Below, piece after piece: positions 14,750 to 56,243 of a DNA stretch of 64,000 nt (the first letter of the stretch is position 1; each line of letters opens with the position of its first letter). The stretch is from Candidatus Poribacteria bacterium (lineage in GTDB: Bacteria; Poribacteria; WGA-4E; WGA-3G): NCBI GenBank assembly GCA_965221425.1, contig OZ244889.1:2843854-2907853 (forward strand), read 5' to 3'. Both the position numbers and the translations under genes were made by a program. Under the pieces are notes generated by a model. That model was not told where the DNA came from. It worked only from the letters and a program-made list of their open reading frames with translations, and searched no databases.

Positions 14750-14773
14750 TCGCGTGTTTACTTTAGGTGAAGC

Positions 14774-15220: not shown

Positions 15221-15331
15221 ATCATAGTCTTGCCGGATGCTGTTGAAAATATATCCATGGACATGAATTGACAAAACTATCATAATCTTTCATCGATCGT
15301 ATCTAAACAATTTTGAAGGGAGATTTTCACT

Positions 15332-38522: not shown

Positions 38523-38532
38523 GAAAAGCCAG

Positions 38533-39788: not shown

Positions 39789-41171
39789 ATGAACGTCCAA
39801 AACAGAACCATCTTCTCAAACGACAACCTCCCCGTGCTACGCGGCATGGACACCGAATCGGTTGACCTGATCTATCTTGACCCGCCCTTCAATTCCAATC
39901 GCAACTATGCAGCCCCTATCGGGAGCGAGGCAGCCGGCGCAGCGTTCAAAGACACATGGACACTCTTCGATGTAGACAACGCATGGCACGGCGAAATTGC
40001 CGATCGCGAACCGGCGCTCTATCAAGCAATCCACGCAGCCGAACTCACACACGGCAAAGGCATGAAGTCTTACCTGATTATGATGGCGGTGCGGTTGTTG
40101 GAGATGAAGCGTGTACTCAAAAAGACTGGAAGCATATACCTACACTGCGACCCAACTGCCAGTCATTATCTGAAGGTAATCATGGATAGCATTTTCGGCA
40201 AAAACAACTTCAGGTCTGAGATCACATGGAAACGGACAACATCTGCACAAAAAGGCTCTCAACATCGTAGTTTGCGGTGGGGTAATAATGCGGATATGCT
40301 TTTATATTATGCATCATCTCGTGAAGCATCATTGCGACCAGAAAAAGAATTGACAGCAGCCGAAATTCGGGAGAAATTCAAGCATGTTGACGAAAATGGA
40401 GAAAGGTATTACAACGACTCATCGCATATTTGGAGCACGCCAAATATGGGTGAACGTCCAAATCTCTGTTATGAATGGCGCGGGTTCGTTAACCCACATC
40501 CATCTGGGTGGCGGCTGAGCAAAGAACGTTTGGAGGAGGAATATCAAAAGGGAAACATCGTTATTCGTCCTGATGGAAAACTGGAGCGGCGAAAATATCT
40601 AAAAGATTACAAAGGTGCGTCCTATGGCAATATCTGGGACGATGTGCTTCCACCTGCAGGAGAGGAACGCACCGGCTATCCTACGCAAAAACCTATCGCC
40701 TTATTGGAGCGCATCATCAAAGCAAGCAGTAACAAAGAAGATATCGTGTTAGACCCGTTCTGTGGATGTGCCACCACCTGTGTTGCAGCAGAACGACACC
40801 AACGGCACTGGATCGGTATTGACATATCACCGAAAGCGGTTGATCTTGTGCGTGTGCGGTTAGAGAACGAGGTCGGACTTTTCGGAGACGTTATCCATCG
40901 CACAGATATTCCAAAACGGAGTGAGAAGTTACCGAACTATCGCACTCACAAACATACGTTGTTCGGTAAACAGGAAGGGTTATGTAACGGATGTCGGACA
41001 CAATTTCCGTTTCGGAACATGACGGTTGACCATATCGTGCCACAATCGCAAGGCAGCACCGACCATGAAGATAACCTACAACTGCTCTGTGGTGCATGCA
41101 ACTCTACAAAGGGACAAGGCACACAAGCGGAGTTGATTTCTCGGTTGAAAGCGCAGGGCGTTTTACACTAA
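39789..41171 (+). CDS. N6-adenine/N4-cytosine DNA methyltransferase (beta-class order) fused to a C-terminal HNH endonuclease
   Basis: Motif IV is IYLDPPFNS near the N-terminus. YPTQKP and motif I, VLDPFCGCATT, lie near aa 300-330. The C-terminal roughly 65 aa (nt ~40970-41171) read CNGC...VDHIVPQSQGSTDHEDNLQLLCGACNSTKG, an HNH motif with a CxxC...CxxC zinc pair. Confidence 0.8.
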   Translation: MNVQNRTIFSNDNLPVLRGMDTESVDLIYLDPPFNSNRNYAAPIGSEAAGAAFKDTWTLFDVDNAWHGEIADREPALYQAIHAAELTHGKGMKSYLIMMAVRLLEMKRVLKKTGSIYLHCDPTASHYLKVIMDSIFGKNNFRSEITWKRTTSAQKGSQHRSLRWGNNADMLLYYASSREASLRPEKELTAAEIREKFKHVDENGERYYNDSSHIWSTPNMGERPNLCYEWRGFVNPHPSGWRLSKERLEEEYQKGNIVIRPDGKLERRKYLKDYKGASYGNIWDDVLPPAGEERTGYPTQKPIALLERIIKASSNKEDIVLDPFCGCATTCVAAERHQRHWIGIDISPKAVDLVRVRLENEVGLFGDVIHRTDIPKRSEKLPNYRTHKHTLFGKQEGLCNGCRTQFPFRNMTVDHIVPQSQGSTDHEDNLQLLCGACNSTKGQGTQAELISRLKAQGVLH

Positions 41172-41605: not shown

Positions 41606-43315
41606 GTGACACAACCAAACTTAGTCTTTGTTATTACAGATGACCAAGGCTACGGTGATTTAGGATGCACCGGAAACTCTGTTATCAACACGCCGAATTT
41701 AGATGCACTTGCAGGAGAAAGCGTACAACTGCGAAACCTGCATGTCGGCCCTACCTGTTCCCCGACGCGCGCAGGCATCATGACCGGTAGATACTGCAAC
41801 TCAACAGGTGTGTGGCATACCATCGGAGGCAGATCACTTCTGCGAAGCGATGAGGTCACGATGGCAGATATCTTCAGGCGCAACGGTTATAAAACTGGCA
41901 TGTTCGGCAAATGGCATCTCGGCGACAACTATCCGTTCCGTCCGCACGACCGCGGCTTTGAAGAGGCACTCTACCACGGTGGCGGCGGTATCAGTCAAAC
42001 GCCTGACTATTGGGGTAACGACTATTTTGATGATACCTACTTTAGCAACGGGTCTGAACAGCCGTTTGAAGGGTATTGTACAGATGTATGGTTTCAAGAG
42101 GGGATGAAGTTTATTGAGCGAAATCAGAATCGTCCATTTTTCTGCTATATTCCAACCAATGCGCCGCACGGTCCGTTCCGTGTCCCTGATGCCTATAGTG
42201 AGGTATACCGAAGGAAAGGAGAACCAGAATCGCGCGCTTGTTTCTATGGCATGATTACCAACATAGATGACAACATGGCGCGACTCCGACACCATCTCAA
42301 AGTGCTTGGACTTGAGGAAAACACTATCCTGATCTTCATGACGGATAACGGATCTGCTAATGGCTGCGATTTAGATGGACAGCAGTTTGTCAAGTCTGGA
42401 TACAATGCTGGGATGCGTGGAAAAAAAGGGTCACCTTATGAAGGTGGACATCGTGTGCCGCTCTTTATGCATTGGCCCAATGGTGGCTTCTCACAAAAGA
42501 AAGAGGTTGACAAACTCACAGCTAACATTGACCTACTACCCACACTTATTGACCTCTGCGATTTAGAGGTGTCCGAAACATCTCGTTTCCACGGCACCAG
42601 CATCACACCGTTACTGCAAGATGAACCGGTGGAATGGGAAGATCGCGTGATTGTTACAGATTCACAACGGATTGAAAATCCGGTTAAGTGGAGACAGAGT
42701 GCCACTATGTCACAAAGATGGCGACTTATCAATGGTACCGAACTTTATGACATCCAAGCAGACCCTGAACAACGAGAGGATATTGCTGGCGACCATCCTG
42801 AAGTCGTCGCGGAACTACGCGAACATTATGAGTCATGGTGGACGTTAGTTTCGGAACGGTTTGATGAAGAGTGTCCAATTGTGGTGGGTACCCAAAACGA
42901 GCAACTTGCATGTATAACGACACACGACTGGCACGGCGGTGGCAACGCTTGGAATCAAGGGTCCATACGGAACGGTATGGAATGCAACGGGTATTGGGCA
43001 ATTGAGATTCCTGAAGATGGGGAGTATAGTTTCGAGTTGCGCCGCTGGCCCCGTGAAGAAAACAGAGCCATTACAGAAGGGATTCCTGGTGAGAAAATTG
43101 ATCTCTATAACGGTGGCCGCGCATTAGATTTAAAATCCGCACAAATCCGTATTGGTGATCAATCGGAGACACAATCTATTGATCCTGATGCAGTTGGCGT
43201 AACCTTTACGTTCAATCTCAAAGCAGGACAGACACGTCTACATACACAGTTCTCTGATGAAACAGGCGAATTGACACTTGGCGCGTATTATGTCTATGTA
43301 AAACGCGTGATTTAA
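41606..43315 (+). CDS. formylglycine-dependent sulfatase (arylsulfatase family), with no recognisable signal peptide
   Basis: GTG start. TDDQGYGDLG, the CSPTRAGIMTGR (C-x-P-x-R) motif, GKWHLG and DNGS. Confidence 0.85.
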   Translation: MTQPNLVFVITDDQGYGDLGCTGNSVINTPNLDALAGESVQLRNLHVGPTCSPTRAGIMTGRYCNSTGVWHTIGGRSLLRSDEVTMADIFRRNGYKTGMFGKWHLGDNYPFRPHDRGFEEALYHGGGGISQTPDYWGNDYFDDTYFSNGSEQPFEGYCTDVWFQEGMKFIERNQNRPFFCYIPTNAPHGPFRVPDAYSEVYRRKGEPESRACFYGMITNIDDNMARLRHHLKVLGLEENTILIFMTDNGSANGCDLDGQQFVKSGYNAGMRGKKGSPYEGGHRVPLFMHWPNGGFSQKKEVDKLTANIDLLPTLIDLCDLEVSETSRFHGTSITPLLQDEPVEWEDRVIVTDSQRIENPVKWRQSATMSQRWRLINGTELYDIQADPEQREDIAGDHPEVVAELREHYESWWTLVSERFDEECPIVVGTQNEQLACITTHDWHGGGNAWNQGSIRNGMECNGYWAIEIPEDGEYSFELRRWPREENRAITEGIPGEKIDLYNGGRALDLKSAQIRIGDQSETQSIDPDAVGVTFTFNLKAGQTRLHTQFSDETGELTLGAYYVYVKRVI

Positions 43316-43443
43316 AATACAGAGTCTAAAAAATGTTATGGGACAGCAGGCTGCCGTTCCATGCCCCTTCTTTTTCAGGGTGTGTAAATATTTTGGCAAA
43401 AGTTTGGGATAAGGTGCGTTGTTTGAGACGTTTCCCATTTTTG

Positions 43444-43477
43444 CTGTCTGAATCGCGGATTATCGCGGAGGACACAC
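43444..43477 (+). repeat. CTGTCTGAATCGCGGATTATCGCGGAGGACAC module copy
   Basis: The same module occurs at 4314-4345, 7536-7565 and 37401-37432. Confidence 0.65.
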
Positions 43478-43742
43478 ATACAAAAAACTTTACACCTCTT
43501 CTTTTTCAACGCCGCTTGCACAAAATCGTGCAGTCATCTCTTCTGCTTGTTCCATTTCGGAATTTAATCTTGATATACCAGACTTATGAATAGAACAAAT
43601 GGCAATGATGTGTTCAGAGCTCTGACAGGGTTATTTAGTTTTCGATTTTTCTGGTATATTTTCACATTTTCATATAAACGAATACATAAGCAAAGTAGTA
43701 GGCACACACCGTGTGTCATCCACCCCAAAATGTGAAGCGGAC

Positions 43743-43886
43743 GGCACGCGGATGAAGTTTAAAAAATAAATGGGTAATGTGGCGAGGTTAGGAAACCTCG
43801 CCAGCAGCAGGTGCACATCTCTGCTGGCAATGTTTCCTAACCTCGCTAAATTACCGAATTAATAACTTAAACTTCATCCGCGTGCC
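43743..43886. repeat. 144-bp near-perfect palindrome upstream of sigma-WD1
   Basis: The outer arms are GGCACGCGGATGAAGTTTAA (43743-43762) and TTAAACTTCATCCGCGTGCC (43867-43886). The inner arms are GGCGAGGTTAGGAAAC and GTTTCCTAACCTCGC, around CAGCAGGTGCACATCTCTGCTG. Confidence 0.8.
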
Positions 43887-44012
43887 TGCTACCCTTAATG
43901 GAATATTCAGATAAAGAATTCAAATTTGCCTCAATTATGACAATCATGCAACCTTTTAACTTTTAAATCGCGTCATTAATTACTGTAAGCACACGGTATA
44001 ATGAGGACTCTA

Positions 44013-46736
44013 ATGAAAAAAAGCGATGCAGAATTAATTCACCAAATCTTATCCGGCGACGAGGCGGCTTTCAGTGCCTTAGTCCAAAAATACCAAAAAA
44101 GTGTTCATGCGCTTGCATGGCGGAAAATCGGTGATTTCCATATCGCTGAAGAAATTACACAAGATATTTTTCTACATGTATACAAAAAATTACCAACCCT
44201 GAAAGACTCGAATCAATTTGCTGGATGGTTATATGTGATCGCTAACAGACAATGCATTGCATGGCTGCGTAAGAAAAAACGGGCAGTGCAATCCCTTGAG
44301 GCTACAAGCCAAGAGACGTTAGAAGAAACCGCTTATGCCTGCTATATTTCAGAACAACGTGAAGAGGCGGAAGCTGAGCGCCGCCGCGAAATTGTTCAAA
44401 ATCTGTTGGAAAAGTTACCGGAGAGTGAACGTACGGTCGTTGTCCTCCACTACCTCGGAGAGATGACTTGCGAAGCGATTAGCAAGTTTTTAGGTGTATC
44501 ACCAAACACGGTTAAAAGCCGGTTGAGTCGCGCACGAAAACGTCTAAGAGAAGAAGAATCTCTAATTCGTGAAACTCTTGGCACTGTTCCACTGTCTCCA
44601 AATCTAACTGCAAACATCATGCGGGATATTAGCAACGTAGAACAGACACCACCCTCAGTGAGTAAGCCGCTGTTACCATTAGGGGCTTTAGGTTCATCTG
44701 TCGTTCTAATTATTTTCTTGCTGGGCGCGAGCAATCAATACCTGACTTACTTTCAATTGCCCTATAGTTTTGACGCGCAATCAGAAACCGCTATTGAAAT
44801 TGTTGAAACACCTATTATCCCTAATATCAAACCGAAACCTGATGTGAAAAATCGTGTTGGAAGCGATACTGCTCTCGGAAAAAGTAGCAATGACGGATTA
44901 GCACAAGGAAAATCATCTATGCAAAATAACTTTACCCAAGATTCTACAAAATGGAAATTGCCGGAAGGTGCAAAAACGCGCCTCGGAAAAGGACACATAT
45001 TTGATATGGTTCACTCTCCTGATGGCAAACTACTTGCTGCCGCAGGAACGATCGGTATATGGATTTATGATGCACACACCGGTGAAGAACTCAACCTGCT
45101 CACAGAACACATGGAAAGTGCTTCAACAGTCGCTTTCAGTCCTGATAACAGCCTTTTGGCAAGTGATGGAAAAGATAACACCATACTGTTATGTGATCCG
45201 CATACAGGAAAACATAAAATGACTCTCACAGGACATACTGAAGGTATTAGTTCGGTAGTGTTTAGTCCTGATGGGAAAACACTGGCAAGTGGGAGTGAAG
45301 ATGAAACGATCCGTTTGTGGGATGTGGCTACAGGTGAACAACTTCTTGTCTTTGCTGGACATGCAGGTGGTGTCTCTGAGGTCATATATTCTCCAGATGG
45401 CGAAATACTTGCCAGCCACGGCATGGATGAAATGATTCATCTGTGGGATGCTAACACTGGCAAATACCTTCGCTCAATTACTGAGTATGAGGGAGACGTT
45501 TATTCCATGGCATATTCGCCTGATGGCGAGGCTTTAGCAAGCGGCGGAGCGGATGGAATAATTCGATTATGGGAGTATCATACCGGACAGCTTAAGACAA
45601 CCTTAACTGCCACAACAAACTCCGGAGGAGTTAAGAAAGTAGCGTTCAGTCCAGACGGACAGACACTCGTTAGTAATAACTACGAAAATGATATGATTCA
45701 GTTTTGGGATGTGGCTTCAGGTGAACGACTCGAAACCATAAAAAGCCCACCAGATACGACCCATCATATAGTGTTCTCCCCGGATGGTAGGACATTGGTA
45801 AATGCTGGTAGTGATGGTACAATTCGGTTCTGGGATGTTGCCACCACTAATCCGATTCGAACCCTTGATGGATATGCAGAAATGTTTCGTGATATGGCAT
45901 ATTCACCAAATGGAAATACACTTGCTACTGTAAGCTCCGGTCCAAGCTTGCGATTATGGGATCCTCACACTGGCAGACTAAAAAAGATCTACTTTCCAGG
46001 TTCCATTAGTATCACTTGTATCGCTTATGCTCCAGATGGCGTAACGCTTGCATGTGGACCGGGACCAACTGAATATGACACGGTGTATCTATTCAATACT
46101 GAGACAGGAGAGCATGGACGCGTTTTCAGTGGATACAAGGACACTATTGAATCAGTGGCGTTTAGCCCAGATGGAAATACTATAGCATGTGCAGGTTGGG
46201 ACGAGACAATCAGATTGTGGGATGTTAGGACAGGCGAAACTATAAAAATTCTTACAGGAGAGAAGGATATTATTAGGGAAATTGACTATTCTCCGGATGG
46301 GAAGATGCTTGTGAGTACGAGCGATTCAGAAATCCGTTTTTGGAATATAAATACAGGTGAAACTGTAAAAGCTATTCCCGGTCACACTGTTGCGCTTTCA
46401 CCGAACTGGGAAAAGTTTATAAGCTGGGGATATAATATAGATATCCAGTTATGGAATATGGATAGTGATGAACCAGTGAAAACCATCACGTCAGAAGAAA
46501 AAACATACTTTCGGGCGTATTCACCAGACGGACGTACAATTGTTGGCATTGATTCGGAAGGTCAATTATCGTTTTGTGATGCGGGGACTTGTGAGGTTAT
46601 TCAGACTTTTGCCATCGGACATAAAAGAAGTAATAGGTCAGAAGGTGTCTATTTTATTAGATATTCACCAGACGGACGCACCCTCGCCACTGGGGGATGG
46701 GACAGCACAGTTCTATTATGGGATGTCCCGCAGTAA
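44013..46736 (+). CDS. ECF-type sigma-70 domain - TM helix - 14-blade WD40 fusion protein (sigma-WD1)
   Basis: Coordinates below use the ORF-track numbering, where aa 1 = nt 44001. Region 2 is IAEEITQDIFLHVYKK...FAGWLYVIANRQCIAWLR. Region 4 is LPESERTVVVLHYLGEMTCEAISKFLGVSPNTVKSRLSRARKRL. A TM helix sits at aa 223-245 (nt 44667-44735). The motif WKLPEGAKTRLGKG comes next, then 14 (F/Y)SPDG...WD units. I prefer ATG 44013 (GAGGA 4 nt upstream) over ATG 44001. Confidence 0.8.
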   Translation: MKKSDAELIHQILSGDEAAFSALVQKYQKSVHALAWRKIGDFHIAEEITQDIFLHVYKKLPTLKDSNQFAGWLYVIANRQCIAWLRKKKRAVQSLEATSQETLEETAYACYISEQREEAEAERRREIVQNLLEKLPESERTVVVLHYLGEMTCEAISKFLGVSPNTVKSRLSRARKRLREEESLIRETLGTVPLSPNLTANIMRDISNVEQTPPSVSKPLLPLGALGSSVVLIIFLLGASNQYLTYFQLPYSFDAQSETAIEIVETPIIPNIKPKPDVKNRVGSDTALGKSSNDGLAQGKSSMQNNFTQDSTKWKLPEGAKTRLGKGHIFDMVHSPDGKLLAAAGTIGIWIYDAHTGEELNLLTEHMESASTVAFSPDNSLLASDGKDNTILLCDPHTGKHKMTLTGHTEGISSVVFSPDGKTLASGSEDETIRLWDVATGEQLLVFAGHAGGVSEVIYSPDGEILASHGMDEMIHLWDANTGKYLRSITEYEGDVYSMAYSPDGEALASGGADGIIRLWEYHTGQLKTTLTATTNSGGVKKVAFSPDGQTLVSNNYENDMIQFWDVASGERLETIKSPPDTTHHIVFSPDGRTLVNAGSDGTIRFWDVATTNPIRTLDGYAEMFRDMAYSPNGNTLATVSSGPSLRLWDPHTGRLKKIYFPGSISITCIAYAPDGVTLACGPGPTEYDTVYLFNTETGEHGRVFSGYKDTIESVAFSPDGNTIACAGWDETIRLWDVRTGETIKILTGEKDIIREIDYSPDGKMLVSTSDSEIRFWNINTGETVKAIPGHTVALSPNWEKFISWGYNIDIQLWNMDSDEPVKTITSEEKTYFRAYSPDGRTIVGIDSEGQLSFCDAGTCEVIQTFAIGHKRSNRSEGVYFIRYSPDGRTLATGGWDSTVLLWDVPQ

Positions 46737-46789
46737 GTGCCATTACATAATATAGACAACAGACACAATCTTCAAGGAGTTTAAATTAC

Positions 46790-48769
46790 ATGAAAATATT
46801 AAACATCATACTGGCTTTTGGACCGCTAATCTCTACATTCTATCTGTTAACTTTTTTGTCTACAACCGCTTTCTCTCAAAATCATATCCACTTAGGACTA
46901 CCTGCAGGTGCAAAAGCACGACTCGGAAAAGGCAGAATACATCAAGTAAAGTATTTTCCTGATGGCAAACGTTTGGCTGTTGCTACTTCTATCGGTATCT
47001 GGATATACGATGTTCAAACAGGAGAGGTGCTTGACCTGCTCACGGGACACACAGCACCGGTTACGTCAATAGCCTTCAGTCCAGATGGTGAAACTTTTGC
47101 TTCTGGAAGTAAAGACAACACCATTCGATTATGGGATAGCAAAACACACAAACTTAAAGCAATCTGTATTGGTCATGAAAATGAGGTCAATTTATTAGCA
47201 TTTAGCCGTGATGGTAAGATGCTTGCTAGCACGAGCAGGGACTGGAAGATGCGGCTCTGGGACGCGCGCACAGGTAAACCACTTCAAACTATCACAGATT
47301 GTGGTGCCGACGATATGTATGCAATAGCATATTCTCCGGATGGTAAGACTTTCCTCACATTCAGGTATGATGACAAGTTTGAAGCATATATTGAATTCTG
47401 GGATGTGCAAACCGGTGAATTTTTAAATTCGGTTCTCATTGAAGCAAATTTCAATGCTGCAGCGATTTCACCTGATTGCAAGATTTTGGCTTGCGGTGGC
47501 GAAGATCCGCTTCAATTTTGGGATGTCGAGACGGGTAAACTCTTAAGAAGCTACACAAAATGGGTAGGAAATTTTGAGTCTATGGAGTTTTCATCCGATG
47601 GGAAGACTCTCATCACAGGTAGTTATTGGGACAGAGTTGATATTTGGGACGTTGGCACAGCAAAACTTCTAAAAAGCATGGGGCATGCTGACACGGTCAA
47701 TTCTGTAACGTATTCACCAGATGAAAAGACAATCGCAAGTGGAAGTGACGATGGTACAATCCGGTTCTGGGATGCCGCTACTGGCGATCAAATAAAAATG
47801 ATTACCGGACATGCCTCCTCAAAAATCTATTCTGCAGCATATTCTTCTGATGGTAACACACTTGCTTGTGGTGGTAAGTCCAAAATTCAATGGTGGGATT
47901 CACTGACAGGTGAACATCTAAAAACGATCAAAGAACCGAGTTGTGATGTCCATTCAATTGCATATTCTTCGGATGCAAAGCTACTTGCAACTGGTGGTAC
48001 TTCTATGAAAGCGCGTTTGTGGGACGGGCAGACGGGTCGGTTCCTCGGCAGTTTTAAGGGACATAAGAGCAGGGTTACTGACGCATATAAGTATCAGGTT
48101 TCTTCCGTAGCGTTTTCCCCCGATGGCAGGACGCTTGCCAGTGGAGGTGGGAAGAAGATGCCCAGAAATTCCGTCAAGAAAGCCAGTAGTGAAGACAATA
48201 TGGTCTGTTTGTGGGAGATTCGCACAGGTGAATTATATCCGATTGGTGAACGTTTGGCAATCTTTACCGAACATACGGATCGGGTCTCTACAGTGGTATT
48301 TTCGCCTGATGGTACTACACTTGCCAGTGGTAGCCAAGACAAGACAATTCAACTTTGGGATATAAACACGCGCAGCCATTTGAAAACGCTCACAGGACAT
48401 GAAGAGGGTGTTGCCGCTGTGGTATATTCGCCAGATGGTAGCACACTTGCAAGTGGTAGTCAGGATGGGACTATACGATTGTGGCACGCGCACACGGGCG
48501 ACTTGGTGCTACCGCCAATTGAAGAAGCGGGACAAGTAACTTCTTTGGCGTATTCTCCAGATGGGAATTTGCTTGCAAGTGGTAGTGAGGACGACAACGC
48601 TGTACATGTCTGGAATGCACAGACTGGGAAACGCCTGCAAACCTTCATTGGATATACACAGAGCGTCAACGCTGTTGTATTTTCTCCAGATGGTAAAACG
48701 CTTGCAAGTGTGAGTGAAGATGGCACAATTCTTTTGTGGGACCTCACACAATTGGTAAGTGATCAATAG
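46790..48769 (+). CDS. exported 14-blade WD40 repeat protein (WD2)
   Basis: AAGGAG RBS. The signal peptide is MKILNIILAFGPLISTFYLLTFLSTTAFSQN, followed by GLPAGAKARLGKG and canonical GH...SPDG..LASGS.D.TIRLWD units. It starts 53 nt after sigma-WD1 ends. Confidence 0.85.
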   Translation: MKILNIILAFGPLISTFYLLTFLSTTAFSQNHIHLGLPAGAKARLGKGRIHQVKYFPDGKRLAVATSIGIWIYDVQTGEVLDLLTGHTAPVTSIAFSPDGETFASGSKDNTIRLWDSKTHKLKAICIGHENEVNLLAFSRDGKMLASTSRDWKMRLWDARTGKPLQTITDCGADDMYAIAYSPDGKTFLTFRYDDKFEAYIEFWDVQTGEFLNSVLIEANFNAAAISPDCKILACGGEDPLQFWDVETGKLLRSYTKWVGNFESMEFSSDGKTLITGSYWDRVDIWDVGTAKLLKSMGHADTVNSVTYSPDEKTIASGSDDGTIRFWDAATGDQIKMITGHASSKIYSAAYSSDGNTLACGGKSKIQWWDSLTGEHLKTIKEPSCDVHSIAYSSDAKLLATGGTSMKARLWDGQTGRFLGSFKGHKSRVTDAYKYQVSSVAFSPDGRTLASGGGKKMPRNSVKKASSEDNMVCLWEIRTGELYPIGERLAIFTEHTDRVSTVVFSPDGTTLASGSQDKTIQLWDINTRSHLKTLTGHEEGVAAVVYSPDGSTLASGSQDGTIRLWHAHTGDLVLPPIEEAGQVTSLAYSPDGNLLASGSEDDNAVHVWNAQTGKRLQTFIGYTQSVNAVVFSPDGKTLASVSEDGTILLWDLTQLVSDQ

Positions 48770-48774
48770 CTATA

Positions 48775-49215
48775 TCAGTGTGGTTGGGAAATCGCACCAT
48801 AGATGTCAATTTAAAAATTTTCCAATCACGTTTAGGGATTACTATCCCTCTTTTGTAGATTGGGTTGAGGAACGAAACCCAACATGAAACGCTTTTATAT
48901 ACTCGAAATGTTGAGTTTCACCTACGGTTCAACCCATAGCCGTCAATTTAGTATCCATTGTGAGCGGTAGGCGCGCTTTGTAAGCGCGCTGGCTCTGTCT
49001 GAAAAGCGGCTTGGTGGTAGAGAAGGTTTCTTCTGTAGGAGCGACCTCCAGGTCGCGACCGGGAGGTCGCTCCTACAGAATATAAGAGGCGCAATGAATT
49101 GCGCGACTACAAACGCCGCTAACCTTAAGAAAATGTAAATATATTTTGATTTTAACTATAATAAAAAGAAATGTAAGAGACGCAATGAATTGCGCGACTA
49201 CGAACGGTCTATTTC
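48775..49215. repeat. mosaic repeat region between WD2 and sigma-WD3
   Basis: It contains the GTGGTTGGGAAATCGCACCATAG hairpin, two CATAG.CGTCAATTTA modules, a GGGTTGAGGAACGAAACCC hairpin, GGTAGGCGCGCTTTGTAAGCGCGCTGG, the 16-bp-stem hairpin TGTAGGAGCGACCTCC...GGAGGTCGCTCCTACA, and two copies of GCAATGAATTGCGCGACTAC.AACG. Confidence 0.75.
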
Positions 49216-49318
49216 TTTAAGAGAAGTTATTTTCAGAAATTGTATAATTATTCATTTTTTTAAACCCACTCCTTGAAAACCTCCCTCTTTCTATTAAAAC
49301 CGAATTAGAAATTTATTT

Positions 49319-51856
49319 ATGAACAGCGATTTGATTACTCTCAGAGACCTTAAAGACGATGAGATTATACGTCTTGTACAAAACCGTGATGAAGCGGCAT
49401 TTACGGAACTCATGTCCCGTTATTCGCCGCAGATTTGGCGTATAGTAGTCGCAAAATCTAGACAACACCGGGATGCAGAAGAAATTCGTACTGACATCTG
49501 GATGGCAGTGTGGGACAATATAGGGGGGCTCCGGAAAATAGATAGTTTTGGTGCATGGTTGCGGCGAATTGCATATAACGCTTGTAACAGGTATTATTCT
49601 TCTCACCGCCGTTCGCGTGAGGAAATCCCACAGAGCAATGCGGATTTAGCCGAACATATTGACCAAGATGCCCCAACACGTTATCAGGAAGCACAATTAC
49701 GCGCAGATGCCAGAGAGGCGGTGAATCACCTCCCACATCGGGTCCGTCCCATCGCTGTCCTGTACTATCTTGAATCCTGGAGTGTCAAAGACATTGCGCA
49801 AAAACTTAACTTAGCTATAGGCACAGTCAAGACCAGATTAAGAGAAATCCGCTCACTCCTGCGGAAGGAGTTTGGCGTTGAGCCTCAACAAGGAGATATT
49901 ATGTCGTTAGAATCCGTTGGATCGCACAATCTTGAGAATTACATTGAAAACTATCTACCGAAAGGCGCAATAACAAGGTTCGGTAAAGGCTATGTATTTG
50001 ATTTTGCATATTCGCCAGATGGAACTCGCCTTGCTTTAGCAAGTACAATTGGTGTCTGGCTGATTGATGTAGCAACCGGTGAGGAAATCAATCTGTTAAC
50101 TGGACATACTTATTATGTCGATAACGTTGTTTTCAGTCCTGATGGTAGAACGCTTGCAAGTTTAAGTAAAGGATACCACGGCGATGGTGTTATTCGTTTA
50201 TGGGATGCCGTCACTGGAGAATCTAAAGCAGTACTTACAGAAGGGATAAATTCTCCTATTTTCAGTCCTGATGGTAAAACACTGGCAAGCAGTGGTGGTG
50301 GAGTAATCCATTTATGGGATGGTGGCACAGGTGAACTAAAAAGAACGCTCATAGGGCACACAGCTCCAGTCAAGACGTTAGCATTCAATCCAGATGGCAG
50401 CACACTTGCAAGCGGCGGTATTGATGAAGTCATCCGATTTTGGGATCTTTCCACTGGTGAGCTACAGTTAACCTTCGCAGCACACGCAAATACTGTAGAT
50501 TCCTTAAAGTATTCTCCAGATGGAGAGGTCCTTGTTAGTCAAGGTGGAGATAACAATGTTTGCCTATGGAATGCACGGACCGGTGAATTTTTGCGCATAC
50601 TCACAACTTGGACAGAAGATAATTATTCTATTGACTTTTCAAAAGATGGGAGAACACTTGTAGGTGTGAATTCCGATGAAACTGTCCGATGGTGGAACCC
50701 TCATACCGGTGAGCAACTCAAAACAATAAAACAGAATAGAGAGCTTGAGGAAGTGCAGTATTCTCCGGATGGTAGAATATTTGCATGTAGTGAGTGTTAT
50801 GGAAAAGCAACAGTCCTACTATTTGATGCCGACACGGGAGAGTTATTACATGATCTCAAAATGCCTGGACATGCAGAATGGGTTACTGGTTTTCAATTTT
50901 CACCTGATGGGCAGACACTTGCCGTTAAAACCGAGAATGAAATATATTTCTGGGATGTAAATACCGGTGAACTTGAAAAGACAATCACAGGATATTCTGA
51001 TGTTGTAAGTAGTGTAGCATATTCTCCTGATGGGAGGACATTAGCGAGTTTAGACGATATCGTACGTATTTGGGATTTAGATACGCAGAAACTCATAAAA
51101 ACACTTTCCACAAAAACACTTTCTGTGAAAGGGTCAATAAGGGCAATCGCATATTCTCCTGATGGGGAGACACTCGCTTGTGGAACTATGGATAAAACGA
51201 TTGTACTATGGAATGTTAGCGAATGGAAAAAAAGAGGAGCACTCAAAGGACATACAAATGGCGTATCCTCGGTAGCCTTTAGTCCAGATGGACAAACCCT
51301 TGCCAGTGGCAGCTGGGATGGGACAATCCAATTGTGGGATGCCCACACAGGAGAACACTTAAAAATCTTTGATAGGCATGCATCGTATGTTAGTAAAGTT
51401 TTATTTTCACCTACTGGACAGATTTTAGCCAGTATTGAAGACGATGAAACAATTCGTTTTCGGGATGTTGCAACGGGGAAACTTGTGAATGCTATAAAAA
51501 TGGAAACAGATGTTGATGTCTGTTCTATAGATTTTTCTTCTGATGGGACAACCCTTGTAACCGCAGACGACACCCTGAAAATTAAATTTTGGGATGTTTC
51601 TACTGCACAGCAAAAATCTATCACACACTTAGAAGCAAAAGGTTATTATGCTGTCCTTTCACCAGATAGCAACACACTTGCAAGCGCAGTTGCTGAGGAT
51701 GAAATATTTTTGTGGGATGTTGCTACAGGAAAACTTCTGAAAACTTTAAAGGGACATATAGGCGGTATTAATTCTATAGTCTTTTCTCCAGATAGCAAAA
51801 CACTCGCGAGTTGCTGTAGAGACAGCACAGTAATTTTATGGGATTTAACGAAATAG
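49319..51856 (+). CDS. ECF-type sigma-70 domain fused directly to a WD40 propeller, with no TM helix (sigma-WD3)
   Basis: Region 2 is DAEEIRTDIWMAVWDNI...FGAWLRRIAYNACNRY. Region 4 is LPHRVRPIAVLYYLESWSVKDIAQKLNLAIGTVKTRLREIRSLLRKE. About 25 aa later comes NYLPKGAITRFGKG followed by WD40 units. There is no hydrophobic segment between the domains. Confidence 0.8.
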   Translation: MNSDLITLRDLKDDEIIRLVQNRDEAAFTELMSRYSPQIWRIVVAKSRQHRDAEEIRTDIWMAVWDNIGGLRKIDSFGAWLRRIAYNACNRYYSSHRRSREEIPQSNADLAEHIDQDAPTRYQEAQLRADAREAVNHLPHRVRPIAVLYYLESWSVKDIAQKLNLAIGTVKTRLREIRSLLRKEFGVEPQQGDIMSLESVGSHNLENYIENYLPKGAITRFGKGYVFDFAYSPDGTRLALASTIGVWLIDVATGEEINLLTGHTYYVDNVVFSPDGRTLASLSKGYHGDGVIRLWDAVTGESKAVLTEGINSPIFSPDGKTLASSGGGVIHLWDGGTGELKRTLIGHTAPVKTLAFNPDGSTLASGGIDEVIRFWDLSTGELQLTFAAHANTVDSLKYSPDGEVLVSQGGDNNVCLWNARTGEFLRILTTWTEDNYSIDFSKDGRTLVGVNSDETVRWWNPHTGEQLKTIKQNRELEEVQYSPDGRIFACSECYGKATVLLFDADTGELLHDLKMPGHAEWVTGFQFSPDGQTLAVKTENEIYFWDVNTGELEKTITGYSDVVSSVAYSPDGRTLASLDDIVRIWDLDTQKLIKTLSTKTLSVKGSIRAIAYSPDGETLACGTMDKTIVLWNVSEWKKRGALKGHTNGVSSVAFSPDGQTLASGSWDGTIQLWDAHTGEHLKIFDRHASYVSKVLFSPTGQILASIEDDETIRFRDVATGKLVNAIKMETDVDVCSIDFSSDGTTLVTADDTLKIKFWDVSTAQQKSITHLEAKGYYAVLSPDSNTLASAVAEDEIFLWDVATGKLLKTLKGHIGGINSIVFSPDSKTLASCCRDSTVILWDLTK
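49890..49903 (+). promoter_or_regulatory. internal Shine-Dalgarno plus ATG at the sigma/WD40 domain junction of sigma-WD3
   Basis: AAGGAG (49890-49895), a 5-nt spacer, and an in-frame ATG (49901, codon 195). The product would start MSLESVGSHNLENYIENYLPKGAITRFGKG, mirroring the N-terminus of the free-standing WD5. Confidence 0.45.
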
Positions 51857-51932
51857 GAATTATATAGTGAACTTTCAAATTATTGGGACATTTTGATAAA
51901 CCTGCTTCAAAAACATAACGGACAGCAGAAGT

Positions 51933-52021
51933 TGTAGCACAAACTTTTAGTTTGTGCCGCTGAGACGCAAACTAAAAGTTTGCGCTACAGAAGTGTCCCA
52001 TTAATTATAGGTTTTACTATA
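51933..52021 (+). repeat. double GCACAAACT palindrome + GTGTCCCATTAATTATAGGTTTTACTATA end, immediately upstream of WD4
   Basis: TGTAGCACAAACTTTTAGTTTGTGCCGCTGAGACGCAAACTAAAAGTTTGCGCTACAGAAGTGTCCCATTAATTATAGGTTTTACTATA. Confidence 0.8.
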
Positions 52022-52046
52022 CATCAAAAATAGAGATGAGGAGGAC

Positions 52047-53990
52047 ATGAACATGCAAAAGCCGCAACACTACACACAGTGGAAACTTACCCCAGGTGCC
52101 AAAAAACGCATCGGAAAAGGGGGGATAAATGAGATTAAGTATTTTCCGGATGGCACACAGCTCGCTGTTGCGAGTACGATAGGCATCTGGATTTACGATG
52201 TACGAACATGTAAACCGCTTGAACTGATTACGGGACATACAGGTCCAGTCAATTCATTAGTATTCAGTCCGGATGGGGGAACGTTTGTGACCGCGAGCGA
52301 TGATAAAACCGCACGTTTGTGGGATGCCAATACAGGACAACACAAAATAAGTTTCATTGGGCATACAGATGTTATCAACTCTGTCGCGTTCAGTCCAGAT
52401 GGTGAAAAGCTTGCCACTGCGAGTGACGACAAAACGATTGGTCTCTGGAACCTGCATACGGGAGAACAGATAGCAAAACTTGAGGGGCATACGGAGAAAG
52501 TTTTTTCAGCAGTTTTTTCGCCAGATGGAACAGCAATTGCCAGCAGTGAAGCGTTCGGTGAAGGAGGAGGTATCCGAATATGGGATGTTCAAACAGGTGA
52601 ATTGCTTAAACACTTTACTGAAGAAACAGATTGGGTAGAATATATCGTTTATAGTCCTGATGGTAGCATGCTTATTAGTCGAGATGGCTGTGGAGAAATT
52701 AATTTCTGGGATGCTAACACAGGCAAAAAACTGAAAACGTGTGAAGCAGAAAGTTGGATGGGTGATTTTTCCCCCATTACATTTGCTCCTGATGGACGCA
52801 CATTCGCTACTGGAATACATGGTGATGATGTCTGTCTTTGGGATATTGGCACTGGAAGATTGTTGAAAAGGTTTGAACTTGAAGTAGATGTAGATTCTTG
52901 GCCCTCTTCTGTCGCATTTTCACCCGATGGCGAAACGATTGCTTGCGCAAGTGAGGAGGGCACGATTCGGTTTTGGGAGGTAAACACCAGCAAAATCTTA
53001 GAAACGATTTCGGATCATACCCTTCATTGTTCTTCTACCCAAAAAACAAAAGGAAAACGTTCTCAGCGAAAAACAGTAGGAACACGTCATCCTTCTCAAC
53101 GCACTTATTCTGTTGCCTATTCTCCAGATGGCAACACACTCGCGAGTAGCTATGGGACCGAAATTCTTATGCGAAACTCAGAGGCCGGTGAAATCCAAAC
53201 AACCATCACATATTCTTGGGAGATTCATCGTCGTCCACAGCAAAATGTACTTGTAATCGCACATTCATCAGACGGTAAAATACTTGCAAGTGCTGAAGAT
53301 ACAACAAAAGCGCGATTATGGGATACGCAAAACGGAAGATTCCTTGGTTCCTTCGTTGGGCATAAGGAAAGTATATCTGCAGTGGCGTTTTCGCCAGACA
53401 GTCGCATGCTTGCCACTGGCAGTCATGACAACACAATCCGCTTATGGAAAGTTTGTATCGGTGAACTGTATCTTATCGGCGAGCTGTTGTTTACACTCAC
53501 TGAACATACAGACAGTGTATGCACCGTAGCATTTTCTCCGGATGGAGGCAACCTTGCCACAGGCAGCTGCGACAAGACAGTCCGATTATGGGATGTCCGC
53601 ACCGGAAATCACCTGAAAACCTTTACTGATCACATAGGAAGTGTTTATGCGGTGGCATATTCACCTGATGGTAGCATACTTGCCAGTGGAAGTGAGGATG
53701 GGACGCTCCGCTTATGGAACAGCCAGACCGGCGAATTGTTAGAAACTTTTAAAGGACAAGCAGAGAAAATATTTTCTGTTGCATTTTCTCCGAATGGTAG
53801 TTTGATAGCATGTGGGGACAATGGCGCAATTCACTTTTGGGACGTGCAAACTGGAAAACTACTGGATACTTATAAGGGACACACAGATGTTGTGGATAGT
53901 CTTGCGTATTCACCCGATGGCGAAACGCTTGCGAGTGGCAGTAGAGATGGCACAATTCTTTTGTGGGATTTAACAACATTTTTTAACTGA
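52047..53990 (+). CDS. cytoplasmic-type WD40 repeat protein (WD4), paralogue of WD2
   Basis: GAGGAGGA RBS and no signal peptide. It contains QWKLTPGAKKRIGKG and canonical WD40 units. It shares with WD2 the unusual segment LW.V..GELY.IGE.L...TEHTD.V.TV.FSPDG and the ending DGTILLWDLT. Confidence 0.85.
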   Translation: MNMQKPQHYTQWKLTPGAKKRIGKGGINEIKYFPDGTQLAVASTIGIWIYDVRTCKPLELITGHTGPVNSLVFSPDGGTFVTASDDKTARLWDANTGQHKISFIGHTDVINSVAFSPDGEKLATASDDKTIGLWNLHTGEQIAKLEGHTEKVFSAVFSPDGTAIASSEAFGEGGGIRIWDVQTGELLKHFTEETDWVEYIVYSPDGSMLISRDGCGEINFWDANTGKKLKTCEAESWMGDFSPITFAPDGRTFATGIHGDDVCLWDIGTGRLLKRFELEVDVDSWPSSVAFSPDGETIACASEEGTIRFWEVNTSKILETISDHTLHCSSTQKTKGKRSQRKTVGTRHPSQRTYSVAYSPDGNTLASSYGTEILMRNSEAGEIQTTITYSWEIHRRPQQNVLVIAHSSDGKILASAEDTTKARLWDTQNGRFLGSFVGHKESISAVAFSPDSRMLATGSHDNTIRLWKVCIGELYLIGELLFTLTEHTDSVCTVAFSPDGGNLATGSCDKTVRLWDVRTGNHLKTFTDHIGSVYAVAYSPDGSILASGSEDGTLRLWNSQTGELLETFKGQAEKIFSVAFSPNGSLIACGDNGAIHFWDVQTGKLLDTYKGHTDVVDSLAYSPDGETLASGSRDGTILLWDLTTFFN

Positions 53991-54178
53991 TTGGAAAGTG
54001 ATGTTCTTAATTTACCAATATTAATGTGTTTTTTTGGACAAAACGCGCAAAAAGTGCATCCATGGATGTGTTAATGAGGTGTCCGTGACGAAGTTTAAGA
54101 ATTGTTAACGCCAGTTTGATAATAAATGACATCAGCTTAATAACAGGTCTTTTCTCCGAAGGCCCACCTTGCGGTTCT

Positions 54179-54262
54179 TGTAGCACAAACTTTCCAGTTT
54201 GTGTGCTATGGGCGCAAACTGGAAAGTTTGCGCTACAATAGGCTTTTATCAAACTCACGTAA
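54179..54262 (+). repeat. double GCACAAACT palindrome module immediately upstream of WD5
   Basis: TGTAGCACAAACTTTCCAGTTTGTGTGCTATGGGCGCAAACTGGAAAGTTTGCGCTACAATAGGCTTTTATCAAACTCACGT. Confidence 0.8.
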
Positions 54263-54281
54263 TTGTTAAGGAGAATTGGTT

Positions 54282-56213
54282 ATGGAAAATATGATGATTC
54301 CGAATTACATTAAAAATTATCTACCTGAGGGTGCTATCGCGCGGTTCGGGAAAGGGTATGTCTTTAATTTTGAATATTCTCCAGACGGCTCCCGGCTTGC
54401 TGTTGCAAGCACAATCGGTGTCTGGCTATATGACACACAAACATATAGAGAACTGCACCTACTAACTGGACATACAGATTATGTCACGGGCGTATTTTTT
54501 AGTCCAGATAGCAAAACACTCGTCAGCCAAAGCGGTGATGGCGAATGGTCTCCTGCAGAGACAAAACTATGGAATGTCCCTTCTGGTGAACTGATTGCGC
54601 CCCTTATAGATCAGAAAATAAAAGTTAATAACATCGTCTTCAGCCCGGATGGAGGAACACTTGCAATAGCAAGTAGCGACAATACCATCCGATTATGGAA
54701 TGGTGTCACTGGTGAACCGAAAGCAACCCTCACAGAACATGGGTGTAAGGTTTTAAAGTTCAGTCCTGATGGTAGCAAGCTCATAGGTGGTAGTGGTGAA
54801 GTCATCCGTTTTTGGGATGTCGCCACGGGTGAACTTCAGTTGACTTTCGCAGCACACGCAAATTCCATAGATGCTCTGCAATATTCTCCGGACGGAAAGA
54901 TGCTTGCAAGTCGCGGAGGAGATAACAATGTGTGTTTATGGGATGCTGATACCGGTGAATTTTTGCGTAATTTCAGAGAGGATACAAGCAAGGTCTCTTC
55001 TATTGACTTTTCAAGAGATGGCAAAACGCTTGCTATCGTGAGTTCTGATGGAACACTTATCTTGCGGAATAGCCAGACAGGTGAAAAAATCAAAACTATT
55101 ACATCGGAAACAGAGTTGAATATTGTGGAACATTCTCCAGATGGTAAAACTTTTGCTTGTGATGAAGGTGAAGATGGAACAATGCTTCTATTTGATGCCA
55201 AGACAGGAGAGTTATTACACACCCTCAAAATGCCCGGAATAAGAACAAGTGTTAATGATTTTCGGTATTCACCCGATGGGCGCACACTTACCGTTTCCAA
55301 CGGATTTGACATCTATTTTTGGGATGTGAATAGCGGGGAACTTCAAGAGACAATCACCGGATATTCTGAGGTTGTAGGTGGCGCAATATATGCTCCAAAT
55401 GAGAATACACTGGCAAGTTTTGACTATATTGTTCGTATTTGGGATATAGAAAATCATAAACTACAGAAAACGATAGAAACTAATAGTAATGTATCTGCAA
55501 TTGCATATTCTCCAGATGGAAAAACAATCGGTATTGGCACTTACGACAATACAATTCTATTATGGGATGTTAGCAAATGGGATAAGAGGGCAATTCTCAA
55601 AGGACACAGGAAAGGAGTCTCCTCGGTAGTATTTAGTCCAGATGGGCAAACTCTTGCCAGTGGAAGTTGGGACAGGACAATCCGTTTGTGGAATCAGCAC
55701 ACTGGAGAACTCTTAAATACGCTAACAGGACATAAAGAAGGTGTTCATGATCTGGTATTTTCACCGAACGGCACAACACTTGCAAGTGGTGGTTGGGATG
55801 GAACAATTCGCTTTTGGAATGTATCCACAAGCAAACTTTTAAGAACTATTGACACAGAGTCAGATAATAGTATAGATTCCATTGCGTATTCACCTGACGG
55901 AATGACACTTGCATGTACCGGGGATAACGGTGCTGATGGTATCCGTTTTTGGGATGTCACAACCGGTAAACTCCTAAAAACAATCGAGGTGGAAGCGGGG
56001 GCGTATTCTTTAGCGTATTCACCAGATGGCAGTGTACTTGCCAGCACTGGTAATGGTGAAATCTCTTTGTGGGATGTGGCAACGGGAACACTTCTGAAAA
56101 CTCTGAAAGGACATATAAGTGCTATCAATTCTGTAACCTTTTCTTCCGATGGCAAAACGCTTGTGAGTAGTTGTAGGGACAGCACGGTAATTTTGTGGGA
56201 TTTAACAAAGTAA
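54282..56213 (+). CDS. cytoplasmic-type WD40 repeat protein (WD5), a sigma-less paralogue of the WD part of sigma-WD3
   Basis: AAGGAG lies 8 nt before ATG 54282. The N-terminus MENMMIPNYIKNYLPEGAIARFGKGYVFNFEYSPDGSRLAVASTIGVWLYD parallels aa 195 onward of sigma-WD3. Long blocks are collinear (VIRFWD..TGELQLTFAAHAN..D.L.YSPDG..L.S.GGDNNVCLW.A.TGEFLR), and both proteins end SCCRDSTVILWDLTK. Confidence 0.85.
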   Translation: MENMMIPNYIKNYLPEGAIARFGKGYVFNFEYSPDGSRLAVASTIGVWLYDTQTYRELHLLTGHTDYVTGVFFSPDSKTLVSQSGDGEWSPAETKLWNVPSGELIAPLIDQKIKVNNIVFSPDGGTLAIASSDNTIRLWNGVTGEPKATLTEHGCKVLKFSPDGSKLIGGSGEVIRFWDVATGELQLTFAAHANSIDALQYSPDGKMLASRGGDNNVCLWDADTGEFLRNFREDTSKVSSIDFSRDGKTLAIVSSDGTLILRNSQTGEKIKTITSETELNIVEHSPDGKTFACDEGEDGTMLLFDAKTGELLHTLKMPGIRTSVNDFRYSPDGRTLTVSNGFDIYFWDVNSGELQETITGYSEVVGGAIYAPNENTLASFDYIVRIWDIENHKLQKTIETNSNVSAIAYSPDGKTIGIGTYDNTILLWDVSKWDKRAILKGHRKGVSSVVFSPDGQTLASGSWDRTIRLWNQHTGELLNTLTGHKEGVHDLVFSPNGTTLASGGWDGTIRFWNVSTSKLLRTIDTESDNSIDSIAYSPDGMTLACTGDNGADGIRFWDVTTGKLLKTIEVEAGAYSLAYSPDGSVLASTGNGEISLWDVATGTLLKTLKGHISAINSVTFSSDGKTLVSSCRDSTVILWDLTK

Positions 56214-56243
56214 TTTGTAACCCAAAACAGAGGTATTGATGAT

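Follow-up and report, generated by a model that had tools for sequence, protein, structure and literature searches.

We analysed a stretch of 64,000 nucleotides (nt) from a sponge-associated Candidatus Poribacteria genome (assembly GCA_965221425.1, contig OZ244889.1, positions 2,843,854 to 2,907,853; hereafter the window), in which nine co-directional WD40 genes occupy the + strand from position 44001 to the window end. The first four of these form two pairs. Each pair consists of a gene in which an extracytoplasmic function (ECF) sigma factor is joined to a WD40 double propeller (sWD1 and sWD3; propellers of Y type), followed by a gene for a free double propeller (WD2 and WD4; X type). In pair 1 both propellers are predicted to reside outside the cytoplasm, and in pair 2 both are predicted to remain inside. 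We propose that the pairs are two paralogous Y-X signalling modules, one placed outside and one inside, in which X is the cognate partner of Y; we give this reading a probability of roughly 55%. An initial annotation of the window had noted the matched compartments and interpreted them as a two-gene unit that was duplicated and re-targeted as a whole. That observation is confirmed here, and its interpretation is partly supported.

Architecture and targeting signals of the two pairs

All four genes lie on the + strand. The protein encoded by sWD1 (44001-46736, 911 amino acids (aa)) combines an ECF sigma domain, a transmembrane (TM) helix and a 14-blade WD40 double propeller. WD2 (46790-48769, 659 aa) encodes an X-type double propeller with a predicted secretion signal, sWD3 (49319-51856, 845 aa) a predicted cytoplasmic protein in which a SIG3-type ECF sigma domain is joined directly to a Y-type double propeller, and WD4 (52047-53990, 647 aa) a predicted cytoplasmic X-type double propeller. 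The likely start of sWD1 is the ATG at 44013, which is preceded by a GAGG Shine-Dalgarno sequence 6 nt upstream and matches the starts of the orthologues. The sigma2-sigma4 region of sWD1 (44001-44570, + strand; SIG1 type) matched PF04542 with 53 bits, PF08281 with 64 bits and TIGR02937 with 106 bits against a cut-off of 42.9; the corresponding scores for sWD3 were 39, 39 and 77 bits, and both Sigma70_r2 and r4_2 were above the Pfam cut-offs in the two proteins. The sigma domain of sWD1 aligned end to end with the SigW 5WUQ and RpoE 1OR7 structures, and full-length structural alignments of both sigma domains to SigW, RpoE and SigH were obtained. These matches indicate that the N-termini of sWD1 and sWD3 are complete group 4 ECF sigma factors, with sigma2 and sigma4 only. 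A search of NCBIfam with both sigma domains gave no equivalog above its cut-off, the best being SigW with 113 bits against 209. Among the nine genes of the array, an N-terminal ECF sigma domain is limited to sWD1 and sWD3.

The C-terminal extensions measure approximately 720 aa in sWD1 and 650 aa in sWD3, well beyond the 50 aa that an ECF sigma factor with a regulatory C-terminal extension must exceed. The WD40 repeats of sWD1 begin at about residue 320, and its Y-type double propeller (44958-46733, + strand) opens with the motif LPEGA..RLGKG; in the more general form [WY].LPEGA..R[LF]GKG this motif opens every propeller of the nine-gene array. E-values for PF00400 ranged from 4e-91 to 9e-116 across sWD1, WD2, sWD3 and WD4. 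In an AlphaFold2 model of sWD1, the sigma domain is predicted with a local distance difference test score (pLDDT) of about 85 and the propeller, with about 56 strands, with a pLDDT of 80-95. The best match of this propeller in the PDB was 2YMU (Foldseek E-value 6e-48, 33% identity over 577 aa), a highly repetitive 14-blade WD40 protein, and this match is consistent with two seven-bladed propellers; 2YMU differs in that it stands alone, and its matched chain contains neither a sigma domain nor a TM helix nor a signal peptide. The other Foldseek matches of the propellers were also tandem-propeller proteins.

TM helices and signal peptides were assigned from hydropathy (Kyte-Doolittle scale, 19-residue window; KD19), the -3/-1 rule and conservation. 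A single TM helix (PLLPLGALGSSVVLIIFLLGASN) was found in sWD1 between the sigma domain and the propeller, at 44667-44735 of the + strand (aa 223-245), where the initial annotation had placed a hydrophobic helix. KD19 reaches 2.33 at aa 224-242 and is at most 1.14 elsewhere in the protein, and the helix is kept in 138 of the 149 SIG1-type paralogues of the related loci described below. It is rich in Gly, Pro and Ser, is preceded by a Lys (..SVSKP) and is followed by 40 residues without a positive charge. From these features sWD1 is predicted to be a single-pass membrane protein with its N-terminus inside and its propeller outside. The cytoplasmic linker (aa 191-222) consists of 32 aa with no Cys or His; between sigma4 and the TM helix there was no Pfam hit, and neither a FecR-like nor a ZAS HxxxCxxC anti-sigma domain was found.

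Directly outside the predicted membrane boundary, a juxtamembrane segment (44736-44825, + strand; aa 246-275) carries the conserved pattern QYL..FQ.PYS.DAQSE..IEIVD.PI and matched no Pfam family. We calculated the mean column conservation of each segment over 133 TM-bearing SIG1-type paralogues. The values were 0.70 for the sigma domain, 0.61 for the cytoplasmic linker, 0.59 for the TM helix, 0.70 for the juxtamembrane segment and 0.41 for the distal linker. The juxtamembrane segment is therefore conserved at the level of the sigma domain, regardless of the type of C-terminal domain, which argues for a processing or docking site shared by these proteins.

The WD2 gene begins 53 nt downstream of the sWD1 stop codon. 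Its N-terminus, MK-ILNIILAFGPLISTFYLLTFLS-TTAFS/QN (a slash marks the predicted cleavage site here and below), has a positive n-region (Lys), a hydrophobic core with a KD19 peak of 1.92 at aa 6-24, and the residues A-F-S, of the form A-x-S, at -3/-1; neither a lipobox Cys nor a twin-arginine was present in it. The segment up to the predicted cleavage site (MKILNIILAFGPLISTFYLLTFLSTTAFS/QN, 46790-46876, + strand) is conserved across 11 orthologues as MKILN..LPLIST..L.TFLS.TAFS/Q, and cleavage sites in other secreted WD proteins are of the textbook AXA type, for example ..ANTFA/QDY and ..CHANA/QWD. The N-terminus of WD2 is accordingly best described as a predicted Sec (type I) signal peptide, in line with the initial annotation. 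Its hydrophobic core is long (about 22 aa), and it may possibly act as an uncleaved signal anchor; the propeller would be outside in both cases. We also considered whether this signal peptide might be a partial duplicate of the TM helix of sWD1. This origin was rejected, as X and Y belong to different clades and X proteins carried a signal peptide ancestrally.

The members of pair 2 showed neither type of signal, again as the initial annotation had it. In sWD3 the propeller motif follows sigma region 4 after only about 25 aa, and KD19 never exceeds 1.14; the maximum is 1.41 in WD4 and at most 1.16 in WD5 to WD8. A simple sum of Hessa-scale values gave 0.25 and 0.97 for the segments of sWD1 and WD2, versus at least 5.8 in all other proteins. 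The open reading frame (ORF) of WD4 cannot be extended, as an in-frame stop lies 12 codons upstream of its ATG, and only 13 aa precede the propeller motif. The Cys content was lower in exported than in cytoplasmic proteins, both for X (0.93% versus 1.48%) and for Y (0.83% versus 1.17%), which lends weak support to the predicted compartments, the cases being phylogenetically non-independent. The possibility that sWD3 is an artefact, in which a lost stop joined a sigma gene to a WD5-like gene with its start Met in ..GDIMSLES.., was rejected, since five other species retain the fusion (loci L003, L004, L007, L008 and L020).

Relationships of the propellers and relocation of pair 2

Within the window WD2 and WD4 are mutual best matches (45% identity, 522 bits), which bears out their proposed status as closest relatives. 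The odd segment that had been noticed in both is real. It consists of an ordinary WD repeat with a 6-aa insertion, located at 48209-48280 of the + strand in WD2 (LWEIRTGELYPIGERLAIFTEHTD) and at 53442-53513 in WD4, the inserted residues being YPIGER and YLIGEL, respectively. The insertion was present in all members of the X clade and in 0 of 59 other aligned propellers. The C-terminal ending DGTILLWDLT is indeed shared by WD2 and WD4 but is not specific to them, as it is also found in WD7 and nearly so in WD6. On the Y side, the propeller of the window to which that of sWD3 is closest is the free WD5 (57% identity, versus 36-38% to sWD1), and the sWD1 propeller is equidistant from all propellers of the window (35-38%). 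Inside the window, a recent duplication of sWD1 and sWD3 is not visible, with 36-38% identity between their propellers and only 27% between their sigma domains. Their kinship emerges only with outgroups, so that within the window only the WD2/WD4 half of a duplicated two-gene module can be seen.

We therefore relied on relatives of the locus for the other half. One genome per GTDB species was scanned with aa 1-330 of sWD1, which gave more than 568 related stretches; the best 80 of these (loci L001-L080) were used, and their ORFs were called and classed by BLAST against the domains of the window together with hydropathy. These 80 loci all come from metagenome-assembled genomes of Candidatus Poribacteria, with L001, L002 and L003 being 87-90% identical. 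A protein search returned 2,996 homologues, in which the same sigma-TM-linker precedes WD40, Kelch, leucine-rich repeat (LRR) or DUF6242/sortilin-like domains. A gene of the sWD1 type followed by one of the WD2 type was found in L001-L005, L007, L008 (twice), L009, L015 and L020, and the four-gene order sWD1-WD2-sWD3-WD4 in at least five other species (L003, L004, L007, L020 and L008, where the locus ends within it). Of the 18 X genes found in other Poribacteria, 16 are immediately preceded by a Y gene in the same orientation; the gap is usually no more than 66 nt, and this adjacency persists at 44-88% identity. In L015, positions 5711-9493 hold a second copy of pair 1, in which Y is cut to a bare propeller (MKDKLSQDSTKWKLPEGA...) and X keeps its signal peptide; this may be a decaying copy.

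Neighbor-joining trees with 100 bootstraps each were built from 55 and from 80 propellers. The X clade comprises a WD2 clade and a WD4-side clade as sisters (bootstrap 93-98 in the two trees). The WD2 clade has a bootstrap of 100, and every member carries a signal peptide. The WD4 side (bootstrap 99) begins with L018_6494 and L015_17658, which have signal peptides, continues with L019_12868, which also has one, and ends in a crown that includes WD4 and has none. Likewise, the Y clade comprises an sWD1 clade (bootstrap 100) and an sWD3/WD5 side as sisters (bootstrap 72-96). On the latter side L018_1487, with a signal peptide, is followed by L019_10010, with a sigma domain and TM helix, and then by the sWD3/WD5 crown, which L019_10010 joins with 100% bootstrap. 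Diagnostic residues numbered five for Y, versus zero for Y1+X and one for Y2+X. Taken together, the trees, the 6-aa insertion and the diagnostic residues indicate that pairs 1 and 2 are paralogous Y-X modules, so that the duplication suggested earlier is supported by the propeller phylogeny and visible in the tree of relatives.

The direction of the change in pair 2 follows from locus L019 (JAJECN010000035.1). Here L019_10010 has a SIG1-type sigma domain, a TM helix, the conserved linker and an sWD3-type propeller ending in ..CRDSTIILWDLTK. The next ORF, L019_12868, overlaps it by 18 nt and is of the WD4 type, with the N-terminus MKILNLLLIILPLISGLCLSNAFA/QAN (..SNAFA/QAN). As the basal relatives on both the X and the Y side of pair 2 are also exported, the ancestor of pair 2 was outside and the pair moved inward. 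In the sequence-based reconstruction, Y lost its TM helix and X its signal peptide on one and the same branch, that of the crown lineage to which the window belongs, although the two losses are about 2.5 kb apart and needed separate mutations. The proposal that the pair was re-targeted as a unit is upheld by L019; the manner of the change was different from a simple deletion of the TM helix, as the whole sigma1-TM-linker cassette (about 316 aa) was exchanged for a SIG3-type sigma domain joined about 10 aa before LPEGA. The SIG3-type family was found in Poribacteria only, with 57 hits that are mostly proteins of about 305 aa, some being fused to WD9-like propellers. Several stand-alone SIG3 proteins of about 300 aa (P0134, P0137, P0139 and others) show a match to PF00091 (tubulin/FtsZ GTPase) in a C-terminal extension of about 100 aa, which is probably spurious in so short an extension.

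We next counted the cases in which a free WD gene is the next gene on the same strand. A sigma-TM-WD gene was followed by a WD gene with a signal peptide in 14 cases and by an untargeted one in 2, both of which are fragments. A sigma-WD gene without a TM helix was followed by an untargeted WD gene in 6 cases and by one with a signal peptide in 0. Three matched states were observed: a TM helix paired with a signal peptide, two cytoplasmic proteins, and two proteins that both carry signal peptides (L018_1487/L018_3501). Loss of the TM helix without a partner was seen in two SIG1-type sigma-WD fusions, L013_12905 (12905-15355) and L018_12981 (12981-15527). In these an internal deletion of about 70 aa removed the cytoplasmic linker, the TM helix and the juxtamembrane segment and kept the distal linker, and this internalisation is independent of that of sWD3.

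Promoter motifs, proposed mechanism and alternative explanations

An ECF-type promoter-like motif, TGCAACC-N15-CGCGTC, lies at 43947-43974 of the + strand, 39 nt before the ATG at 44013. It is invariant in 10 orthologous upstream regions and occurs as a single copy in the 64-kb window. In the 80 loci there were 51 occurrences, 41 of them within 200 nt upstream of SIG1-type sigma genes; about 6 chance hits would be expected, as estimated from the degeneracy of the pattern. The motif was found upstream of 0 of the 31 signal-peptide WD genes and 0 of the 9 SIG3-type genes of the loci. Its AAC (-35) and CGT (-10) character is that of ECF promoters, which suggests that sWD1 may regulate its own transcription, and the motif together with the 53-nt gap suggests that WD2 may be transcribed with sWD1. 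With a spacer of 15 or 16 nt, TGCAACC-N15/16-CGCGTC stands upstream of nearly all close SIG1-type fusions, irrespective of the domain at the C-terminus. Among SIG1 paralogues the -35 and -10 elements are near-identical and the spacer alone differs, which raises a question of cross-talk in genomes with dozens of such sigma factors.

Upstream of sWD3 a distinct motif, TTTTTAAACC-N17-CCTCT(T/A)TAT (in the window TTTTTAAACC-N17-CCTCTTTCTATT), was found at 49255-49295 of the + strand. It precedes 11 of the 12 SIG3-type genes compared, including sWD3 of the window, the orthologues of sWD3 and the stand-alone forms of about 305 aa. AAACC is present in it, and CCTCT stands where CGT would be expected. 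As this motif differs from that of the SIG1-type genes, pair 2 was probably also rewired to another promoter specificity.

In the mechanism that we propose, Y is an ECF sigma factor with a 14-blade WD40 double propeller as its C-terminal extension, and X is a free double propeller encoded just downstream and probably transcribed together with Y, from the ECF-type promoter of Y itself. The fused propeller would serve as a sensor or regulatory domain and the free propeller as its cognate binding partner, so that both would need to share a compartment. Module 1 (sWD1-WD2) would act outside, with a cytoplasmic sigma domain, the TM helix, the juxtamembrane segment and an outside propeller, X being exported via Sec. 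Module 2 (sWD3-WD4), with neither TM helix nor signal peptide, would act inside; it descends from an ancestor of the outside type. RseB of E. coli is a soluble, exported protein encoded in the same operon as RseA; it binds the outside domain of RseA and gates site-1 cleavage. X could act on Y as RseB does on the periplasmic domain of RseA. In module 1, site-1 cleavage in the juxtamembrane segment might be followed by intramembrane cleavage of the Gly/Pro/Ser-rich helix, by which sigma would be freed; in module 2 the partner may act directly on the sigma-propeller protein in the cytoplasm.

Several observations weigh against this reading. Of 59 sigma-TM-WD genes examined, 43 have no free WD gene next downstream, so that having a partner is no general feature of the family. 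Most of the matched pairs are orthologous to one another and represent about 5-6 independent lineages with one clear co-transition, which makes the statistical support moderate. There is one mismatch, L015_5711, a Y without sigma domain, TM helix or signal peptide upstream of an X with a signal peptide. The gap between sWD3 and WD4 of the window measures 190 nt and contains a repetitive extragenic palindrome (REP)-like sequence, so that their co-transcription is uncertain. A scan of 43300-56300 for consensus sigma-70 promoters and terminators stayed at chance level, with 29 promoters versus 26 expected and 10 terminators versus 10 expected. The AlphaFold2 model of sWD1 is uninformative on topology and domain contacts, with a pLDDT below 50 for aa 199-326 and a predicted template modelling score of 0.47. 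The linker of about 33 aa has no anti-sigma domain, and downstream of sWD1 and sWD3 there are WD40 genes with no anti-sigma Pfam hit; the tether alone is the obvious means of keeping sigma inactive.

The pairing may alternatively reflect no functional coupling at all, the genes being tandemly expanding paralogues whose targeting matches through shared ancestry and chance. There are only two pairs in the window and most matched pairs elsewhere are orthologous, signal peptides are in any case present in about half of the free WD proteins of the loci (31 with, 26 without), there is the mismatch in L015, and the TM helix was also lost without a partner in L013_12905 and L018_12981. Such an account has difficulty with two separate mutations about 2.5 kb apart on the same branch, with Y-X adjacency in 16 of 18 cases across so wide a range of identity, and with the finding that no sigma gene without a TM helix is followed by an X with a signal peptide; we consider it quite improbable. 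Somewhat better placed, though still unlikely in our view, is the idea that the free propeller is not a binding partner and is instead co-transcribed cargo or output, for example a secreted eukaryote-like protein for the sponge host, in which case the matched compartments would reflect a milieu common to sensor and output. An ECF sigma factor usually drives its own operon, and only the sigma gene is preceded by the promoter motif. Many sigma-TM-WD genes have no free WD neighbour, and Poribacteria are rich in TM or signal-peptide WD40 and eukaryote-like repeat proteins, discussed as host-interaction factors (PMC3909097). What the cargo idea leaves unexplained is that X always belongs to one clade and Y to another through at least three duplications of the unit, and that a cytoplasmic sigma-propeller protein should need a cytoplasmic copy of a once-secreted protein.

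A further alternative concerns release. The tethered sigma factor might work while anchored, like ToxR or CadC, or might be sequestered and never active; neither an anti-sigma domain nor a protease gene was seen in the locus, and the cytoplasmic linker of about 33 aa is conserved (0.61). We judge this to be improbable, as sigma must join the RNA polymerase core, Gly, Pro and Ser abound in the TM helix, the conservation of the juxtamembrane segment is like that of a site for processing or docking, and IutY, the sole characterised membrane-anchored ECF sigma factor, is freed by Prc and RseP.

ECF sigma factors that carry a fused regulatory extension have been called the sigma world's one-component systems, and to our knowledge signalling by membrane-spanning members is known for essentially one protein, IutY. 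In RpoE-RseA-RseB of E. coli and SigW-RsiW of B. subtilis, as in sWD1, a membrane-spanning element stands between sigma and an outside sensor, and RseB is the closest functional analogy for WD2; in sWD1, however, sigma and the membrane element form one polypeptide with no anti-sigma domain, and WD40 propellers are outside. Jogler et al. reportedly described in 2012 an ECF01-Gob of Gemmata with one TM helix before its WD40 repeats. An ECF sigma factor with a WD40 extension is present in T. immobilis, Planctomycetes (PMC8567305), and planctomycetal ECF57 combines an ECF core with WD40-type repeats, for which regulation by the extension via protein-protein interaction was proposed (PMC8999054). 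ECF57 and ECF01-Gob resemble the proteins studied here in having a sigma2-sigma4 core with WD40 repeats and no separate anti-sigma factor. They differ in belonging to Planctomycetes, whereas all 80 loci are from Poribacteria, and in that neither a paired free propeller nor an alternation between inside and outside is described for them; in the Poribacteria family, one conserved sigma-TM-juxtamembrane module is found on WD40, Kelch, LRR and sortilin-like domains. IutY of Pseudomonas putida, an ECF243 sigma/anti-sigma hybrid activated via cleavage by Prc and RseP (PMC8999054), is likewise one polypeptide with an N-terminal ECF sigma, a single TM helix and an outside domain, but has a FecR-like anti-sigma domain and a TonB-dependent receptor, neither of which sWD1 has. 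SCO4117 and the ECF52, ECF53 and ECF48 groups of Actinobacteria also extend C-terminally through the membrane to an outside binding domain, and proteolytic activation was proposed for them. They have a ZAS zinc-finger domain and one or two TM helices, and the linker of sWD1 has neither Cys/His nor a ZAS motif.

In the literature searched, no paper joins Poribacteria with ECF sigma factors; Kamke 2014 (PMC3909097) reported the abundance of WD40 proteins and the frequencies of TM helices and signal peptides in Poribacteria and never mentions sigma. The Poribacteria family of sigma fusions, its dedicated free-propeller partner and the paired relocation are not described there. The 80 loci hold 149 SIG1-type sigma genes, with WD40, Kelch, LRR or other domains behind one sigma-TM-juxtamembrane module and a shared promoter motif, a pattern suggestive of a sensory system specific to the phylum, which possibly responds to cues from host or matrix. 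Four states were seen for the segment that determines the address of a propeller: sigma1-TM-linker, sigma3, signal peptide, and nothing. A wider reading, possible but on balance doubtful, is that Y-X constitutes an undescribed sigma signalling unit, in which a propeller receptor and a soluble co-receptor can operate on either side of the membrane, evolution having shifted the unit between compartments through exchange of N-terminal address cassettes at a fixed junction just before LPEGA..RLGKG, and that many WD40, Kelch and LRR proteins of Poribacteria are sensors of membrane-anchored ECF sigma factors and not host effectors. If true, a large share of these proteins would be ECF sigma sensor domains rather than host-directed effectors, and the reading of the expansion of eukaryote-like repeats in sponge symbionts would change in part. 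The same propeller pair, outside and anchored or cytoplasmic, in one genome and across species, also amounts to a natural experiment. It provides matched constructs for asking whether the free propeller is a cognate regulator and whether release needs proteolysis.

Other genes and repeats of the region

The remaining genes of the array, all on the + strand, encode free propellers. WD5 (54276-56213, 645 aa) is an untargeted Y-type propeller. WD6 (56244-58070, 608 aa) and WD7 (58075-59895, 606 aa) are cytoplasmic paralogues that are each other's partners, with 60% identity. WD8 (60049-62061, 670 aa) and WD9 (62078 to the window end, where it is cut) are divergent propellers with the same N-terminal motif. 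A weak hairpin is located at 48834-48849, after WD2.

Upstream of the array lie genes for a 658-aa Ser/Thr protein kinase and a tetratricopeptide-repeat (TPR) protein (34024-36000 and 38494-39633), a region that is also syntenic with L003. An ORF at 39789-41171, two genes upstream of the array, encodes an HNH endonuclease domain C-terminal to an N6/N4 DNA methylase domain (PF01555), and is followed by a sulfatase gene at 41606-43315.

Ahead of the promoter motif of sWD1 lies a near-perfect palindrome of about 140 nt (43745-43884), with arms CACGCGGATGAAG... and GCGAGGTTAGGAAAC. The window has six copies of the 15-mer GCGAGGTTAGGAAAC. The palindrome, which has the look of a miniature inverted-repeat transposable element or a REP, is also found upstream of the L002 and L009 orthologues. 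A separate REP-like palindrome, GCACAAACT-N4-5-AGTTTGTGC, is dispersed in intergenic positions (4278, 7499, 21856, 33844, 51937, 54212 and 59975), with copies in the gaps sWD3/WD4, WD4/WD5 and WD7/WD8, and is sometimes doubled with a GCGCAAACT..AGTTTGCGCTACA arm.

In other species, the WD arrays contain a recurrent ORF of 232-244 aa with an N-terminal hydrophobic segment, which is absent from the window. It is positioned after WD4-type or before WD6-type genes, at 19545-20246 in L004, 19486-20220 in L007, 17616-18335 in L009, 15004-15732 in L015 and 5587-6285 in L018.

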